DNA of 63,661 bases, filler included, from Reclinomonas americana ATCC 50394 (Eukaryota), in NCBI GenBank assembly GCA_048213135.1. It is 14 parts of 5 records of this genome, joined end to end, with 100 filler letters (N's around TTAATTAATTAA, not from the genome) between each part and the next. Parts side by side here need not be neighbours in the genome. Positions count along the whole stretch, not along the records: positions 1 to 7,427 come from PS015679.1; 13 more parts are not named here. One strand, given 5' to 3'. Below are positions 1 through 62,818 of the stretch, in pieces. The notes under the pieces are model-generated. The model did no database searches. It had not been told where the DNA came from and saw only the letters and a program-made list of their open reading frames with translations. The position numbers and the translations under genes were made by a program. How positions within the stretch are numbered: position 1 is the first letter of the stretch; each line of letters opens with the position of its first letter.

Positions 1-100
1 TCTCTCCTTCTCCTCCTCCTCTCTCTCTCTCCCCTCCCTCCTCTCTCTCCCCTCTCTCTCTGTCTCTGTCTCTCTCTCTCTGTCTCTCTCTCTCTCTCAC

Positions 101-306
101 CGTGACCAATCGCAGATGCAGTGTCACTATGCGCTCTGCGGTCTCAAACAGCGCCTTGGCCTCGTCCAGTCCGGGTGGGAGCAGGAAGGGCGAGTTGTAC
201 ACCTCGACCTCCTTGGCCTTCTTGCCCTGTGAGGAAGAGTGAGAGGGGGAGCGGAGAAGGAGGAGAGAGTAAGACGCACCTTTCCCTTCTTTCCTTTCTT
301 TGGCAT
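101..306 (-). CDS. 5' part of an uncharacterised protein with a Lys-rich N-terminus (two exons; continues off the window)
   Basis: Exon 306-280 (MPKKGKKGK) ends at a GTGCGT donor. After a CACAG acceptor, exon 226-101 reads GKKAKEVEVYNSPFLLPPGLDEAKALFETAERIVTLHLRLVT and ends at a GTGAGA donor. Phases match. Confidence 0.7.
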
Positions 307-457
307 GGTGCGACAGGAGAGAGAGACGTGCCTTTGCTGAAGAGTCGACAATCAACGTCTGTGTGCTGAGTCACTGCATGGATTGTCCTGTAGTGACAGA
401 TATCTGCTGGGTTTGACTTTTATTTTCCCGCGGAGCCGTGTTTCAGAACACACGGCA

Positions 458-3400
458 ATGGGTGCCTCGCACAGTGTGGAAGGTGGCAGTGGTAGTAACA
501 GGTTTGCTTCGATTATCTTGTGCTGAGTGAGTGAGAGTTTGTTGTTGACTTTCGTGCGGTGCTTCTCGCATCGGAGGAAGAGAGCGTGGGAGATGGGGAG
601 AGACAACGAATTGTCGGCACTGCGCGCTTTGGTGACGCGTGAAGGCGCGCACATCTTGTTGCAGAAAGAGGAGAGGGATGAGGGTGGCAGCACGGCGTAT
701 TTCTTCGCCGCGATGAAAGGCCATCTCTCTGTGTTGAAGTATTTGTTTGAGAGCGGCGTTGGAACACAACTCGCCCGGATGGTCAACGAGTCTGGTTTGA
801 CGCATCTGATGGCGGCCGCTACCGACGGACACAAGGAAGTGGTTACGTGGCTGCTCGCTGACGAGGGACGATGTCCTTCAGAGGTGGTCCGGTTGGTCTC
901 CAATGGGCGTTCCAGCTATCCGCTTTCCAGTGCATTGCATTATGCTGCGAGATATGGCCATGAAGCGATCGCGAAGCTCCTTGCCACTCGCTTTCCTGAC
1001 CTCATTCAAATGGAATCCCAGACGAGGATGACAGCGGCACAAGTGGCGCGGAGCTGTGGACATGAAAAGTTGGCCGATCTGCTCTTCAGCCTCCCCAGCA
1101 TCTCTTCACACAGGCCACAACTGCCGCAACAACAACAGCAACACAGACAGGCATCGCCATCACGACGATCATCATCAATATCATTTCGACATCCAGTACC
1201 ACCACCACCTCCCGGTCAACAACAACAAGCGCCATTGTCGCCGTCGCCATCGCCATCGCCATCACAGTCGCCAACTCCACCGCTTCCAGGTCAACAACAA
1301 CAAGCGCCATTGTCGCCGTCGCCATCGCCATCGCCATCACAGTCGCCAACTCCACCGCTTCCAGGTCAACAACAACAAGCGCCGTTGTCGCCGCCGCCAT
1401 CGCCATCACAGTCGCCAACTCCACCGCCCAATCCACTGCCACAACCAGCGATCGCGAGTCAACAGCTATCACAGTCGCGACCATCCTCAGTGACGTCAGC
1501 ACGACCTCCGCCACCGCCACCACCACCACCACGTCAACAACAACAAGAACCGCCGCCATCGCCATCGCCGTCGCCATCGCCATCGCAATCACCATCACAG
1601 CCACCAACTTCACCACCACCACCTCCTGGTCACCGGCAACAACAAGCGCCACCGTTGCCGTCACCATCATCATCACAATCGCCACGTGCACCTCCACCAC
1701 CACCACCACGTCAACTACAACAACAACAACAACTCCAATATCCACAAGCATCTCCTGTTCCTCACCTGTCGCCTCAAGAAGGATCCGGAGGTTAGTGATT
1801 TGTAATTTGCATTGCTTGCCCAGATGATACAGACCCTTATGGATCATTCATTCTGATTCTTCGTCTCCTGTACGACCAGCAGCCAATGCTGGTGTCGCTC
1901 TTCAGCTACAGAGGAAAAGGGCGTGTGAGATGGCAGGAGATGGTGATGTGGATGCACTCCGCGCATTGGTTACCAACATGGGTCCACAAATTTTGCTCTC
2001 AACAGTGGAGATGGGCGATGGTGGCGGCTCGTCATTTTACAGGGCCGCTTACTGTGGTCATATTCCTGTGATGGATTATCTGTGGCAGCTGACTGATGTT
2101 GGCCCACGGCTGTCAACTGTCGTTACTGACGGTGGTTGGACACCACTGATGTCTGCTGCATACGTCGGTCGTCTCAATGTGGTGGAGTGGTTGCTTGCCG
2201 ACGAGAAACGATGTTCACCGAAGATGGTGCGCGCGGTCACCCATGACAGTGCCAGGCATCCACAGTCTACTGCGCTGCATTTCGCAGCAGCAAATGGCCA
2301 CGAAGCCATTGTACGACTCCTCGCCACTCAGTACCCCGACCTAATTCAGATGGCAAACAAGGAGGGCAAGACACCGGCTCAGTGGGCGCGAGATACTGGC
2401 AAGCTACCAATATCCGAGCTGCTCGGCCATCTTGCTGCGCAGTCTGCTTCTGGCCAACTATTGCGACAAGATCCGCGCGCATACGTACGTCCTTCTCCAT
2501 CTCTTCCTGCAACAGGTGCGTCGCTTTATGTTGCCTCTACGTTGTTGGTATACTTGAATGCTCACGTACCCGACTCGCTATTCCCCTCGGAAACAGACGA
2601 CACAGACAACTCACAAAAGGTGAGTCTGAAAATCTGGTAGCGCTTTTGTACATCAATTTTCGCTCTGTACCGCGCGCTGACCATTCGCACGACTCGTCTA
2701 AATGTGCAGTCTGCTGCAGCAACTGCGAATGGTGCTCGACTCCAACGCGAGCTCGATGCAGCAATAATGGAACGAGAGCAGCAACGGCAGGAGCGGGATC
2801 GACAGCGGAGAGAACATGATGACGTTGTCGCGCAACTGAAGCGCGCCCTCGCCGACGAGCAGGAGAAGAATCTGCAGCTACAGCGGGAAAATGCCGAGAG
2901 TCGGCGGCAAGCTTCCGAAATGAAAAGCGACCTTGTCGCTGGGCGTGATGAGTGGCAGCGCAAGGCCGAAGAGCTGGAAGGCCAGCTGCGCGCCCTCGTC
3001 CATATGGACTTCCTCAAGTTTTACGTTAATTGCCGTCTCTTCTGTTGCCGTGTTTCAACTCACTTTGCAGGCGCTCAGCGAACGCCTTCGGATCTTGATG
3101 CTAACTGAAGTCGTTCACGAGATTATTCCGCTGGCACTCGGCTCGCTGTTGCAACAACTCCTCGCTGGGTTCTTTCCTGGCGAATTCGACATAGATCAAC
3201 TCTGCCTCTCTTCTCCACCCCCGAGGTGATCGATTGCATGCCTGCACTGTGTGCTGTACAGCGCTCCTTATGCTCACTCTTTCTCTCAGATACTGCCGTA
3301 TGACTCTGGACAAGCGAGGCAACATTCGTTTGCGGTCAGTCGAGCTTTTCCAGCCCAACTACGAACCAGTGCGAGCATTCAAACGCAGTGGATTGACAAA

Positions 3401-5489
3401 GGACATGGACGTGTCGCTGTTGAGCACACTTTTGCTACATACGACTTTCGTCTCTGCCGGTACTTGTCGTGATGCAGATCTGATGGAGAGTCTAGTGCGT
3501 CTCGACTCTGCCACGAACAAGGATCGCTGCGCAGTGCCACTGCTCGCAGATTCGGCCAAGGTATGCCCTCGTTGGTGCTGAGTGTGTTAGCTGGCCACGT
3601 GTTGCTAACATTTGACGTCACTCACTTCAGATTGGAGCCGTGGTGAGCTTGCGAGGTGTGCGCCATCGCATGGCGCACTTGGCCCGTCTGTCTGCACTTG
3701 AAGACGCAGAGTATGTGAGCGTCATGAGGCTGGTCCGCGACTCGCTTCACATTCTGTTCCCAGACGGTCAGCACGAAAGTATCCGCCGTCTTTTCCAGTC
3801 CTACGATAGTTGCGACAGCACTTGGAACTGAGTGTCTCATTTCATCGAACTCATACGTTTGCACAGAAGTCAGCAATATCAGCGTGACTGCCGAGTTGGT
3901 CACCCAGAGCTGTGCAAGATTTGCTGTGAGCGCTCCCGTTTTGCCGTTCTCGGACTTATTATCAAATTTGAGGCAACTAGCTATTGGTGCGATCTTCTTC
4001 GGCTGCTCGTATTCTGGAAGTCAGCTGGTCTCATTTCAACTTCGCTTCCCCTCGCAGGACAAAATGCTGTATTCCAAGCCTCTCTCAGTGTCGGTGGTGT
4101 ATTGCAAACTGTGGCATACAAGCGATATTTGGTGAGGTCGCAAGCTCGAGATGCACAATCGGCTGACTGGAAACGCATTCATGAGAGTTTTGAGAACGAA
4201 CACTCTCTGCTGATGCAACTCGAGTTGAGTGCTAACGTGATCATCGTGCTTGTATCTAGCCGCCGTCGCTCATGCCTGCATGCACACTTAGTCACCCACA
4301 CATTGTGAAACTGATGGCGGTGTGCAATGACGACCCGGATGGATTAGGACTCATTCTTGAATACGTCTGCCAAGAGAACGAAAAAGAAAAGGTCGCTGCG
4401 ACTTTGCATGACCTGGTGAAGGATAAGCGTGTGTTATCGCAACAGCTGCTCGGCCTCCTCACGCAAGTGACTTCAGCGGTGGTGTACATGCACTCGTGTC
4501 GACTGGTACATCGTGACCTGAAGCCACATAGTTGCGTCATGCAATTGGTGAGAGTTGTGAGGGCCCAGACGGACAGCGAATTGTACTGGAGAACGATACT
4601 AGTACTGAGAGTTTTCACGTACGCGTATACAATGTCAGCGCGCGTTTTGTCTCCGTGTCTCAGAGAGAGAGAGAGATCAGAGAAGTGCAGTTCTTGTGAG
4701 GGCTGTGTAGCAAGATATGAGAGCTCTTTCTGCAAGAAAGGAAGAAGACAAGTGCGCTAGCACTCCTTTGTTGAATGAGATGGTTACAGGACGAGCTTGA
4801 GTTCTACAGTGGCGTCGGATTCGGAGTTCGCAAACCCCTCGCTTGATTGATTCCACCTACCTACTTTCCCTCCATATCCCCTTAATATCCACAGACATTC
4901 TCATTGGCGACGAAGTTGATCGGCTTGTAGCAAAGGTGTGCGATTTCGGGGAGGCCAAGATTCACGGCACTCTCGGCAAGATGCAGTCGAATCACGGCAC
5001 GGCGGCGTACGCCGCGCCCGAGGTAATGTTGGATCAGGAGGTGCGCTCACGACTGTGACACTAATGTGGAACAAGTAAGAGTGGCTCTGGATTTCTCACC
5101 CTTCTTCCGCACCATGTAGTACGACGAACGAGCGGATGTGTACGGACTAGGTTCACTGCTCTGGTTCATCGCCACTCGCCGAGAACCGTTCTCTGGGATG
5201 TCATTGCCGGCCATCATGCGCCACATGCACGATGGCATCCCACCTGGCAATCTTGACGACGAAGCTGTAAGGGCAACAGTGCCGGAGGACATCCGCAGTC
5301 TCATTCGACAGTGCTGGGTTGCGTGTTTGATTAGTTGCTTGTCGCCTTGAGAGATTGATGTTGATTATGCGTGTGACGCAGAGGCCTCAAGCGACACGTG
5401 TGTCGGCATCGTACGTGCACGACGAGTTGAGGCGGCTTTGTGAGACTGCGCAAGCCGCAGTTAGTGCGGCTTCTGCTGGGCCGTCGTAG
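458..5489 (+). CDS. Multidomain protein: ankyrin block, Pro/Gln/Ser linker, second ankyrin block, coiled coil, HEPN-like domain (RHRMAH), TKL-type protein kinase
   Basis: In-phase exons: ~593-1790, 1880-2515, 2597-2619, 2710-3024, 3071-3225, 3290-3560, 3631-3766, 3867-3986, 4058-4223, 4292-4530, 4895-5040, 5120-5317, 5382-5489 (TAG). ANK motifs include ALHYAARYGH, TPLMSAAYVG and TALHFAAANGH. Kinase motifs are VAYK, HPHIVKL, HRDLKPHN, DFG, GTAAYAAPE and DVYGLG. The start is uncertain: possible first exon 458-501 (MGASHS...), otherwise ATG at 593. Confidence 0.85.
1214..1440 (+). repeat. Coding tandem repeat, about 3 x 75 bp (GQQQQAPLSPSPSPSPSQSPTPPLP)
   Basis: Units start at 1214, 1289 and 1364, inside the Pro-rich linker. 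Confidence 0.9.
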
Positions 5490-5675
5490 TGAGCAGGCTG
5501 GTGGCGACCTCAGCCGAGACCCGCACTACTTTATTTGCGAAGAAATTCTATACTTTGTATAGTCTATATTAGTCGCATTTATCTGTGAACTCAGTTACAA
5601 GCCATCGCTGTTCATAACTGTATTGACCGACATCTATGTGCATGAAAATATACATTGATTCCCGTCTCCTCACTG

Positions 5676-7427
5676 TCACTCACTGGGCTCCAGTGTGATT
5701 TTATCCTGCGCCATCCACCATGAGTTCCCTCTCCCACACACTCCCACACACACGCACCCTCCCATCCCCACACCTTACACAGCGGACACGACCGATCGCG
5801 CGTCGTCAACCATTCATCGACGCACTCTTGATGATAAAAGTGCCTGCCCCACAAACATAAGCCCCAAAGCACCCATCACTCCCCTTGCCCCACCACCACC
5901 CCACGCAACATGCACGGCAGCGTCCTCAACATCTCTCCCTCCTCATACGGCCCCAAACAAATCTCGCACGACTGATGATCGGCAGGCAAATTCGCTGCAT
6001 GACACTCGAACACCGGCAACTGGCGCAACAAGTGGCGCGGCAGCGGCGAGCGGGCGTGCGGTCTGGCGATAAACATACCGGGTGCTTGCTGCTGCTGTTG
6101 CTGTTGGTGAAGTGCCGCGAGCAGGCCGCCGAGGGCCAGTGGGTCGTGTGCGGGGCGGCCCTGTGGGAGGAGAGAACAAGGAGAAGGAAGCGGAAATGAA
6201 ATGAATGACAGGGGAGAAGAGTGACACGAGCAAGGAACAGACAGAGACGGGTAGGAGCGACACGAGCGAGGAACAGAAAGAGACCGGGGGAGAGCGACAG
6301 TGAGAGAGCAATGAAGCAAGAAAGAAAGAGAGAGGGCAAAAGAACACAGGAACAATTCGTGACTGCCAGAGTGCGCGCGAACTATGAAGGAACACAAAGA
6401 GAAAGAGAGAGGGGGAGAAACAGAGTGAGGAAAAGATAGACTGAGAGGGACAGAGAGAGACAGAGAGAAAGAGAGACTCAGAAAGAAAGAAAGTCTGAGA
6501 GAAACAGAGAGAGAGAAAGAAAGTCTGAGAGACACAGAGAGAAAGAAAGAAAAGTGATCAGGACAACAGTACACGGAAATCGCTTCTGGGTGTACATGAC
6601 AGAGCAGCAGAGGAACGAAGAAATGGTGGAACAGGTCACTGCATCCCAGCGAAAGAAGCCCAACAAAAGAATCAAAGTACCCGATAAAATGTGAGCGCAC
6701 AGAAACGTAGAAATGGTAGAACAGGTCACTGCATCCCAGTGTAAAAGGCCAGCAAAGAATCAGCATGCCCGAAAAATAGGAGCAGCAGAGGAACGAAGAA
6801 ATGGTGGAACAGGTCGCTGCATAACACCATCACAGCGACGCAGCACGGGGATCGCCCGACAGAGACAAAAGGAGAGCCTTTGAATAGCACGAGACGGGAG
6901 CAATGAGAGAGGAGAGGAGTAACAATAAAGAGAGAGAGGAGAGACAAACACAGAAAAAACACAGCAACGAGAATGAAAGTATGCGAAAGAGATCGTTTCT
7001 GAGTATTTGAGAGAGAGCAATACATCGTGAGTGGGGTGCACAAGAGAGAAAGAGAACGAGAGATATCCAATGGGACACAGTCAACCAGAGATAACCACAT
7101 TCGATACTCTCTCTCACGCACACTCACAGTCGAACACAGAGCGAGAGACAACACAGAAATGACGATGAACACTCAGCGGTACATCGCCCACGCCATCTCC
7201 TCACACCAACCCCACTCACCATTTGCTGCTGCTGCTGCTGCTGTTGCTGCCCCTCTGCCAGCAACCTCAACAACTGCTGCATCACCACAAACCGCTGCAC
7301 ATCGTCGTGCCCCGCAAGGAACTGCACCCCACCGGGAGCCGCCGCCGCCGCCGCCGCACCTCCCGCAGGCCCTGCCTGTTGCTGTACATGCTGGTGATGA
7401 TGATGATGTGGTGGTGGTTGCGGTGGG
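5676..7427 (-). CDS. C-terminal part of a RING-H2 E3 ubiquitin ligase
   Basis: Exons 7427-7220, 6160-5910, 5843-5774 and 5705-5676 splice in phase to CEICLGPYEEGEMLRTLPCMHFYHQECVDEWLTTRDRSCPLCKDKITLEPSE*, a canonical C3H2C3 pattern. Confidence 0.9.
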
Positions 7428-7527
7428 NNNNNNNNNNNNNNNNNNNNNNNNNNNNNNNNNNNNNNNNNNNNTTAATTAATTAANNNNNNNNNNNNNNNNN
7501 NNNNNNNNNNNNNNNNNNNNNNNNNNN
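7428..7527. other. Artificial contig linker (N-run, TTAATTAATTAA, N-run); 13 copies in the window
   Basis: The same six-frame-stop 12-mer embedded in Ns at 7472, 12556, 25350, 30869, 34394, 36939, 39209, 45342, 48556, 51182, 55144, 60974 and 62454. Confidence 0.98.
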
Positions 7528-11954: not shown

Positions 11955-12611
11955 AGTCAGTCTCTCTGTCGGTCACTCTGTCAGTCTCTCTTTCTCTCGT
12001 GTAACTCAATCTCACTGAGAGGGACACTGACACAGAATGAGATACGGAGGGGTGAGAGACACTCGTACCATGCGCGGCATCCTCCGCATCGCCACGCAGC
12101 AATCGGTGATCGCCTCCTTGTGCTCCACCACCACCGACGTTGGCCGCGGATCGCCGTCCGCGGAGAAGCACATCGACGAGCAGCGAGGACAAGTCGACCA
12201 GGCATAGGAGGAGTAGAATGGTCAGCGAGATGCACCTGCGGAGGGAGGGAGGCCGGAAACAGTCAATGATGAGGAGTCGGAGAGAGCAGGAGGCGGAGAG
12301 ACAAGTCGGAGAATGGTAGAACACATAGTATGTCGAGAGGAGGGAAGAGAGGGGAGACAGAGGAGACAGAGGAGACAGAAGAGAGACAAGAGGAGAAGAG
12401 AGAGAAGAGAAAGAGAGAGAGAAGAGAGAACAGAAGGAAGAGAGAGAAGAGAGAAAAGAAGGAAGAGAGAGAAGAGAGAAAAGAAAGAAGAGAGAGAGAT
12501 GAGAGAGAAGANNNNNNNNNNNNNNNNNNNNNNNNNNNNNNNNNNNNNNNNNNNNTTAATTAATTAANNNNNNNNNNNNNNNNNNNNNNNNNNNNNNNNN
12601 NNNNNNNNNNN

Positions 12612-52399: not shown

Positions 52400-54282
52400 T
52401 ATATACACACTCGTTGAATCTTTCTCGCGCTCTTACACAATCTCTCACACTCTCTCACACATGCACTGCCTCCTCTCCTTCCCGTCCTCGGTCCTTGCCG
52501 ATCGCCCTGCCCTCTTTTTCTCACTCTGTTCGTTTCCGTCCTTCTCTAAACATCTCACACACATTCACTGTCTCTCCTTCTCGTCCCGTTCTCCTCTCCT
52601 TTGCTCTTCTCTTTTAACATGCAGTCACTCTGTTCGTTTCCATCTTCTAAATTTTTCATACACACAACAATCCTCTCCGCCCTCTCCTCTCCCCTTCCCT
52701 TCCCCTTCCCCTTAAAAATCCCCTTTCCCCTCTCACCCACCTCCATGGCCGTGCGCCCTCACATGCCCCCTCGTATGCTCCACAACATGCGCATACACCG
52801 CATGCAACTGCGCCAACTCATTCCGTCGCCGCGCGTCAGGCAGCAAATCCACCAACTCGTGCCACAAAAAGTGGTTGCCGCGAATCGCCTCCTGCACATA
52901 GGTGTAGTACTCCTCCGGCGCCAAGTCGCCACGTCGATACTTGGCCGACTCGTTGCGGAACTCCTTGAAGGCGTCTTCCGTGCCCAAGTGCTCGCGCAGG
53001 TGCCGCATAAACGCCTGATTGCGCGTCTGATCGCGCGACGCGTTGGTCTGGGCATCCTGACTCGCGCGCGCCATCACATCTCGCTTCAGTTCCTCTCGCT
53101 GCCGCACAATGGCACTGGCTCGGTCGCGTTCCGACATGGAATTGAGACCGGTGCGATGGCCGAGAATGTCGACGTTGAAGTTGAGTTGCAGGGCGGTGGG
53201 ATCCTCCAGCGGGTGCATGGTCGGCTGCGGAATGCCGGGCAAGTGGGCGCCCGACTGCAGCGAGATCACCGCCGACGAGCGCGACGCCGGGTGCGTAGGG
53301 TGCTGACGATGCAAGTGGGCCACCAGCTCAAAGTCGGAGGAAAACACAATGCCCGCCTCGACGCACTCGCCCACCGGGCACACGTAGTGGCAGGAGATGT
53401 AGTGGTCGAGGAGGTGGCGGTGGTCTTTGAAGTAGCGCCACATCATGCCGTCCTTGTCGCACACCTGAGTATTTGGAGAGGAGGAGGGGGTGAGTGTGAG
53501 GGGGAAAGAGAAAGGAAAAAAGAAAGGGAAAGGGAAAGGGAAAGGGATAGGGAAACAGGTCGCTCCGTCCGAGTGCTGTCTCTAATTAGCTAACTTTCCT
53601 TCTCTCTCGTTCACTCTCTATCAACGACAGAGAGAGAGAGAGACGGAGATAATGAGAGAAGAAGGCGAACAGAGAGAGAATGAAGAACGGAGGAACGAGT
53701 GAGGAGGCAGTGAAGAGAAACTAAGACACAGCTGACAGCTGAGAGNNNNNNNNNNNNNNNNNNNNNNNNNNNNNNNNNNNNNNNNNNNNNNNNNNNNNNN
53801 NNNNNNNNNNNNNNNNNNNNNNNNNNNNNNNNNNNNNNNNNNNNNNNNNNNNNNNNNNNNNNNNNNNNNNNNNNNNNNNNNNNNNNNNNNNNNNNNNNNN
53901 NNNNNNNNNNNNNNNNNNNNNNNNNNNNNNNNNNNNNNNNNNNNNNNNNNNNNNNNNNNNNNNNNNNNNNNNNNNNNNNNNNNNNNNNNNNNNNNNNNNN
54001 NNNNNNNNNNNNNNNNNNNNNNNNNNNNNNNNNNNNNNNNNNNNNNNNNNNNNNNNNNNNNNNNNNNNNNNNNNNNNNNNNNNNNNNNNNNNNNNNNNNN
54101 NNNNNNNNNNNNNNNNNNNNNNNNNNNNNNNNNNNNNNNNNNNNNNNNNNNNNNNNNNNNNNNNNNNNNNNNNNNNNNNNNNNNNNNNNNNNNNNNNNNN
54201 NNNNNNNNNNNNNNNNNNTCTCTCTCTCTCTCTCTCTCTCTTTCTTTCTTCTCTCTCTCTCTCTCTCCTCCTCTCTCTCCTC

Positions 54283-62409: not shown

Positions 62410-62818
62410 NNNNNNNNNNNNNNNNNNNNNNNNNNNNNNNNNNNNNNNNNNNNTTAATTAATTAANNNNNNNNNNNNNNNNNNNNNNNNNNNNNNNNNNN
62501 NNNNNNNNNCTTTCTCTCTTGTGTGTGTGGCCATGAAAAAGAGATGAGTTGGCCTACTTTTTTTTACAAGCCAACGAGCTGTGTGCAGCGCGCAGTGAGA
62601 GAAGCAGTGATACTTTTTCCCTTCCCCATTACCCCCTAAAATCCGTATGCGTGCGTTGATGTGTGTGTTTTGTGTGTTGCTTTTTTGTGTGTGTTGTTGC
62701 CCTATATCCTTACCCTCGACCGGTTACCAGAGAAACCTTCTGCATTAAAAAAAATAGACAAGAGATTGATACACACATACACTTCCACCACCACAAACTG
62801 CAGCAGCAGCAAGCAGCA

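Follow-up and report, generated by a model that had tools for sequence, protein, structure and literature searches.

Here, we report a gene of the gene-dense unicellular eukaryote Reclinomonas americana ATCC 50394 (assembly GCA_048213135.1) whose predicted product combines two blocks of ankyrin repeats, a charged helix, a helical domain with a candidate HEPN ribonuclease (RNase) motif, and a protein kinase. The gene is located at positions 458-5489 of the plus strand of the window, i.e., the whole stretch of 63,661 nucleotides (nt) that was analyzed. According to the reading that we tentatively prefer, short of calling it probable, this is one gene for a multidomain Ser/Thr-type kinase, the helical domain is a HEPN domain that has diverged strongly, and the protein could follow a logic similar to that of RNase L and Ire1.

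The gene model was produced by a script that enumerates GT..AG pairs maintaining an open frame, the splice logic being taken from the genomic sequence. It comprises 13 exons with GT-AG introns, joined in one open frame that encodes 1277 amino acids (aa) and ends with the stop codon at 5487-5489. Of the 12 introns, 11 range from 64 to 97 nt in length and the remaining one has 364 nt; the mean GC content of the exons is 0.557, compared to 0.42-0.54 in the introns, and the region contains no N letters. Since several junctions have in-frame alternatives, the exon ends are not fixed. Several donor/acceptor pairs are available for intron 1; intron 2 can use acceptor 1879 or 1882, or else combine donor 1768 with acceptor 1913; the donors for intron 4 are 2998, 3018, and 3025, and those for intron 7 are in the range 3767-3809. 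None of the alternative junctions affects the two motifs discussed below, DMDVSLLSTLLLH and RHRMAH. The first exon (458-501) is uncertain; it carries the putative start codon, and its peptide begins with Met-Gly and has Ser at position 6, which we take to be a start of the N-myristoylation type.

Ankyrin block 1 (about four repeats and a cap, aa ~20-190) is encoded by exon 2 (577-1790) and is followed by a low-complexity linker of 230 aa, among them 79 Pro, 46 Ser, and 45 Gln. Exon 3 (1883-2619) encodes ankyrin block 2 and a further linker. Both assignments are supported by Pfam matches well above the cut-off of 27.3 bits: Ank_2 at 5e-18 (65.9 bits) and Ank at 6.5e-11 in exon 2, and Ank_2 at 2.4e-17 (63.7 bits) in exon 3. 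The two blocks share 46.7% protein identity (tblastn search of block 1 against the window, 2e-44), and their DNA alignment has 300 identical columns out of 497 in the coding part; block 2 is an old internal duplicate of block 1. A tandem repeat identified by TRF, with a 75-bp unit in 3.1 copies and 93% matches, is situated at 1202-1427 inside the coding Pro/Ser/Gln-rich linker, and its length is likely polymorphic. Exon 4 (2710-2997) encodes a 96-aa helix rich in Ala, Arg, Glu, and Gln, for which the Pfam scan yielded nothing beyond chance-level rows; it may be either a coiled coil of weak character or a single charged helix.

The kinase is distributed over the last six exons. Exons 8 (3867-3986) and 9 (4058-4223) encode a linker and the N-lobe, with the Gly loop IGQNAVF, the VAYK lysine, and the alphaC glutamate, and exons 10-13 (4292-4530, 4895-5040, 5120-5317, and 5382-5489, the latter including the stop) encode the core and the C-lobe, with HRDLKPHN, DFG, APE, and DVYGLG. 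In the Pfam scan, which was made per exon on 12 exon peptides and gave ankyrin or kinase matches for five of them, Pkinase (PF00069) was found in exon 10 (3e-11, 43.7 bits against the cut-off of 31.7), exon 11 (3.6e-6), and exon 12 (0.006), the last of these also matching PK_Tyr_Ser-Thr (0.0026); exons 8 and 9 taken singly had no match in Pfam or PDB. The kinase is of the Ser/Thr type with an intact catalytic core. The open frame stops 36 aa past kinase subdomain XI, no family was matched by exon 13, the next gene is on the other strand, and no KEN (Ribonuc_2-5A) domain is present C-terminal to the kinase.

No consistent relationship of the kinase to Ire1 or RNase L emerged. The best PDB match of exon 10 is Ire1 (1.4e-5), narrowly ahead of AMPK (3.8e-5), that of exon 11 is Rad53/Chk2, and that of exon 12 is TAK1 (1.1e-5), with chains of TAK1, MLKL, and RIPK1 matched weakly. 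As the top match changes from exon to exon, we rejected the kinase as a relative of Ire1. A search of exon 10 against longer proteins revealed no homologue, and a metagenome scan with the same exon retrieved a single locus, an unrelated kinase-like gene that is 27% identical over the C-lobe and has no helical domain.

Most of this architecture had been described in a first-pass annotation of the same DNA. The 13 in-phase exons that it listed were reproduced by the script, the two ankyrin blocks of about four repeats each are borne out by the Ank_2 matches, and the residues that its kinase was said to keep (K, E, HRD-N, DFG, and APE) are all present, while the state of the Gly loop went unmentioned there. 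That annotation further proposed a DZIP3-type HEPN RNase domain between the charged helix and the kinase, and it is on this domain that the interpretation of the protein turns.

The helical domain is encoded by exons 5-7; it has 192 aa after splicing, is cut by introns of 64 and 70 nt, and sits some 40 residues upstream of the N-lobe of the kinase. Exon 5 (3071-3225) contributes a hydrophobic helical stretch followed by a Pro-rich loop. The middle part, exon 6 (3290-3560), carries DMDVSLLSTLLLH from 3402, with the motif DVSLL, and exon 7 (3631-3778) carries RHRMAH (aa 914-919, positions 3661-3678), followed by a loop and a second helix; both motifs are exactly where the first-pass annotation had placed them. 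The pattern D(I/V)(T/S)LL is presumably a mark of the DZIP3 family, and the reading of DVSLL depends on this assumption of ours. The likeness of the region to what we take to be the general DZIP3-family pattern was given no weight. RHRMAH is the candidate catalytic motif. In the HEPN signature described in PMC3710099, Rx4-6H, the residue following the arginine is N, D, or H, and the motif is placed at the end of core helix 3 of a four-helix bundle, before the loop to helix 4. All elements of this signature, i.e., the arginine, the polar histidine next to it, and the final histidine, are found in RHRMAH. When the 192-aa domain was shuffled 200,000 times, the two motifs appeared together and in the same order in a fraction of 0.000145 of the shuffles, the pattern having been picked post hoc.

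Two further observations on exon 7 point in the same direction. In the AlphaFold model of its 66-aa open frame, made without an alignment (pLDDT 69.9), residues 7-19, 25-42, and 49-65 form helices, and RHRMAH occupies residues 11-16, late in the first helix and before the loop 20-24; in this fragment model, the position of the motif is compatible with the published placement. Among ESM Atlas features, the top named cluster for the 49-aa exon 7 peptide is Csm6 HEPN (PF09670; score 0.89, 154 shared features), followed by PF27235, Ymh (PF09509), Cas_Csm6_HEPN (PF09659), HEPN_Apea (PF18739), DUF4209, and DUF4145. The PF27235 row looks unrelated, and Ymh, DUF4209, and DUF4145 are counted as HEPN families in PMC3710099. 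The family or clan of the best match is common to seven of the ten best named matches, with a recognition value of 2480. On balance, we consider membership of the helical domain in the HEPN superfamily somewhat probable, and its assignment to the DZIP3 type possible, with less confidence. That the domain acts as an RNase is put forward as a hypothesis, for which the motif and the exon 7 signals provide slender evidence.

A number of observations weigh against the reading proposed above. In the profile, search, and fold tests, which covered single exons (fragments of 49-90 aa), none of exons 5, 6, and 7 (fragments of 51, 90, and 66 aa) gave a family match at E<=10 in Pfam, PADLOC, or NCBIfam, including PF18738, the DZIP3/hRUL138-like family, in Pfam. 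For exon 6, phmmer yielded zero matches among 1.84 billion representatives at E<=0.001, and neither a word-indexed search against longer proteins nor a metagenome scan retrieved anything; the same word-indexed search with exon 7 was also empty at E<=10. PDB sequence searches with exons 6 and 7 produced chance rows only (E 0.2-1.4), the exon 7 fragment gave unspecific results in structure searches, with no informative fold match, and the AlphaFold model of exon 6 (pLDDT 39.5) is unusable. In the ESM Atlas, where a score below 0.9 is a lead only and true family members typically share 170 features, all exon 7 scores are under 0.9 and the 154 features of the best match are below the typical number; moreover, this signal may reflect the same short motif that the first-pass annotation had noticed, and may not be independent of it. 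Exon 6 fell into unnamed clusters only, with scores of at most 0.83. The pattern R[NHD]xxxH by itself occurred in 0.059 of the domain shuffles, and the window, translated in six frames, contains it 52 times. Outside the helical domain, the Gly-rich loop of the kinase, IGQNAVF, is degenerate. The helix of exon 4, which the first-pass annotation took for a coiled-coil dimeriser, is charged and Ala/Arg/Glu/Gln-rich, but its heptads are poor, hydrophobic residues occupying 11 of 28 a/d positions in the best register, and the supposed dimeriser is weak. Finally, the linkage of the ankyrin part to the helical-domain and kinase part is deduced from splice logic. The interpretation given in the first-pass annotation is supported in part: the exon 7 cluster assignments and the placement of the motif late in a helix agree with a HEPN domain, whereas the profile, homology, and fold checks, run exon by exon, yielded no informative match.

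A plainer explanation is that the protein is an ordinary lineage-specific ankyrin kinase whose helical region has a regulatory or scaffolding role, e.g., as an MLKL-like juxta-kinase bundle or a death-fold-like adaptor, with RHRMAH and DVSLL being coincidental. The blank results for exons 5-7 by profile, sequence, and fold with respect to any HEPN family, the sub-threshold ESM scores, and the chance frequency of R[NHD]xxxH, a second copy of which (RDLKPH) falls in the catalytic loop of the kinase itself, are what this explanation would lead one to expect, and the meaning of DVSLL for the DZIP3 family is our own presumption. On the other hand, several HEPN families dominate the named ESM matches of exon 7, and the motif has both the published polar residue after the arginine and the expected position relative to the helices. 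The alternatives for the helical region fare no better, as the MLKL bundle, Death, and RGS families were also unmatched in the exon-wise Pfam scan. Exon-sized fragments test weakly, and since the blank searches used fragments of 49-90 aa, they lower the odds of a HEPN domain only moderately. We regard this explanation as a serious one, if somewhat doubtful. A variant of the HEPN assignment, which we consider quite improbable, is that the domain is HEPN by descent and serves as a non-catalytic RNA-binding or dimerization module, the kinase being the sole enzymatic output. The RNase activity is indeed a prediction from the motif, and non-catalytic binding HEPN domains are described in PMC3710099; on the other side, R, the polar residue, and H are all retained here, which the same source takes as predictive of RNase activity.

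The remaining alternative concerns the gene boundaries. When intron 2 is retained, the frame of exon 2 stops at 1796-1798, and the region could be read as two genes, the first encoding an ankyrin protein with a Pro/Ser/Gln-rich tail that ends at this TAG, and the second starting from the ATG at 1930 and encoding ankyrin block 2 together with the charged helix, the helical domain, and the kinase. Each ankyrin block opens with a Met (592 and 1930) in the same sequence context, and short spacers are found locally, e.g., about 150 nt between the divergent upstream gene and the ATG at 458. However, the stop and the following start, on the same strand, would be only 131 nt apart. The donor gag/GTTAGT immediately precedes the stop, and after a pyrimidine-rich stretch comes an in-frame acceptor that has a CTRAY branch-like site 30 nt upstream. 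Besides, the two ankyrin units are alike at the coding level from about 35 nt upstream of the internal Met codons, the AG acceptor included (23 of 34 columns identical), whereas further upstream they share just 9 of 30 columns; the shared stretch corresponds to positions 560-600 and 1895-1935. This similarity suggests exon duplication within one gene. Because acceptor 1913, homologously placed in the second unit, pairs in frame with donor 1768, intron 2 may in truth span 1768-1913 instead of 1791-1882. Two separate genes thus seem unlikely to us; in such a case, the fusion of the helical domain with the kinase would stand and the two sensor blocks would not.

If the single-gene HEPN reading is correct, the following mechanism can be envisaged. 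The protein, possibly myristoylated at its N-terminal start, would bind a partner or a ligand via the ankyrin blocks, and its clustering would unite two kinase and two HEPN modules. The active site of HEPN RNases is formed across a dimer, and for this reason clustering would be expected to turn on metal-independent RNA cleavage, while the kinase would autophosphorylate or signal in parallel. Triggered by ligand-driven clustering, the cleavage of RNA could in this way serve in an antiviral, stress, or cell-death response. The logic would be that of RNase L and Ire1, with the RNase module preceding the kinase and derived from another HEPN family. We consider it unlikely that this mechanism holds in its entirety. 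Similarly improbable, in our estimate, is the broader proposition of an independently assembled RNase L-like effector, namely that a kinase-coupled HEPN RNase arose independently in a unicellular eukaryote from ankyrin sensors, a divergent, catalytically competent HEPN domain, and an active Ser/Thr kinase, the protein being tethered to a membrane and having the RNase ahead of the kinase.

The KEN domain found in RNase L and Ire1 is itself a HEPN-superfamily RNase, and RNase L has N-terminal ankyrin repeats. The protein described here resembles them in the kinase fold, in the ankyrin repeats (RNase L), in the HEPN-type RNase, if our reading of the helical domain is right, and in the expected activation by self-association. 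In contrast, their KEN domain follows the kinase or pseudokinase, whereas the candidate RNase precedes it here; the kinase of our protein keeps HRD, DFG, and APE; and two ankyrin blocks are present, separated by the 230-aa linker, which is disordered. Membership in the RNase L/Ire1 family was rejected, since the protein lacks a KEN domain and a specific kinase kinship and has the reversed domain order. By analogy, it may nevertheless work as these proteins do.

The second group for comparison is that of eukaryotic HEPN proteins of the DZIP3/hRUL138-like type (PF18738), in which HEPN is joined to ankyrin repeats and to domains of the immune or apoptosis type, and with which our protein shares the presumed family mark D(I/V)(T/S)LL followed by Rx4H in the same order, although exons 5, 6, and 7 taken singly escape Pfam. 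Table 1 of PMC3710099 lists fusions of DZIP3-type HEPN domains with ankyrin, NACHT, DEATH, CARD, RING, TPR, and LRR, as well as expansions in cnidarians (Nematostella), molluscs (oyster), and Capsaspora, and the paper reports lineage-specific expansions in a unicellular relative of animals; a kinase, present here, is not among the fusion partners in that table. PMC8195603 also describes HEPN RNases that serve as effector modules in immune-type proteins of animals, together with ankyrin repeats. A full-text literature search, at the level of search results, retrieved no paper on a DZIP3-type HEPN joined to a protein kinase or on a eukaryotic protein with HEPN before a kinase. If the domain is HEPN, the protein would be a eukaryotic HEPN effector with a new kinase partner and a new domain order.

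The third group for comparison is formed by ankyrin-repeat kinases such as ILK and TNNI3K and by proteins of the MLKL type, in which a helical bundle is joined to a (pseudo)kinase. Here the likeness consists of N-terminal ankyrin repeats or a helical bundle directly before the kinase fold. To our knowledge, none of these proteins has a helical domain with Rx4H, and exons 5-7 showed no sequence match to them in the Pfam scan or, for exons 6 and 7, in the PDB search.

Ire1 and RNase L, both kinase-coupled HEPN RNases, play central roles in the unfolded-protein and interferon responses. If true, our reading would provide them with a convergent counterpart, and the coupling of a kinase to a dimerization-dependent RNase would be a recurrent solution, reached here with another HEPN family, in the reverse order, and with an apparently active kinase. 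It would also offer a simple protist system for studying how the state of a kinase governs RNA cleavage. Should the helical domain turn out not to be HEPN, the gene encodes one more lineage-specific ankyrin kinase, of interest chiefly to annotators.

The window is a chain of short contigs, many of which end at CT/GA microsatellites. They are separated by 13 identical artificial spacers of the form N44-TTAATTAATTAA-N44 (e.g., 7428-7527, 12512-12611, 25306-25405, and 62410-62509), which are all-frame stop linkers of a type employed for joining contigs. As the kinase gene lies in the first piece (1-7427), only genes up to 7427 are certain neighbors. A tblastn search with the model found neither the helical domain nor the kinase a second time in the window, and Rfam and tRNA scans of the window were empty.

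Upstream, a divergent gene (106-307, minus strand), whose start codon is the one some 150 nt from the ATG at 458, encodes a Lys/Gly-rich N-terminus followed by a short intron; its tested exon had no Pfam match. Downstream, a convergent gene (5612-6130, minus strand) encodes a RING-H2 finger over two open frames (zf-rbx1, 2.2e-6; zf-RING_2, 6.2e-6; zf-RING_11, 6.2e-5), and its 3' end is within a few hundred bases of the stop of the kinase gene.

Several genes were identified in the other pieces. Repeated genes at 25362-26900, 35102-36442, and 37372-38241 (plus strand) encode BNR/Asp-box (Sortilin-Vps10-like) repeats together with EGF modules resembling those of teneurin (EGF_Teneurin, 1.2e-22; Sortilin-Vps10, 9.5e-13; BNR, 1e-7), and in connection with them, two contig pieces open with the same sequence directly after the linker. 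A threonyl-tRNA synthetase-like gene with several exons, broken by runs of N, is located at 16299-20480 on the plus strand (tRNA_SAD, 2.5e-6; tRNA-synt_2b, 9.5e-16). A WD40 repeat gene (7e-12) was found at 42461-43294 on the plus strand, and a gene with a ZNF598-type PAH domain (6.4e-14) at 52733-53578 on the minus strand.

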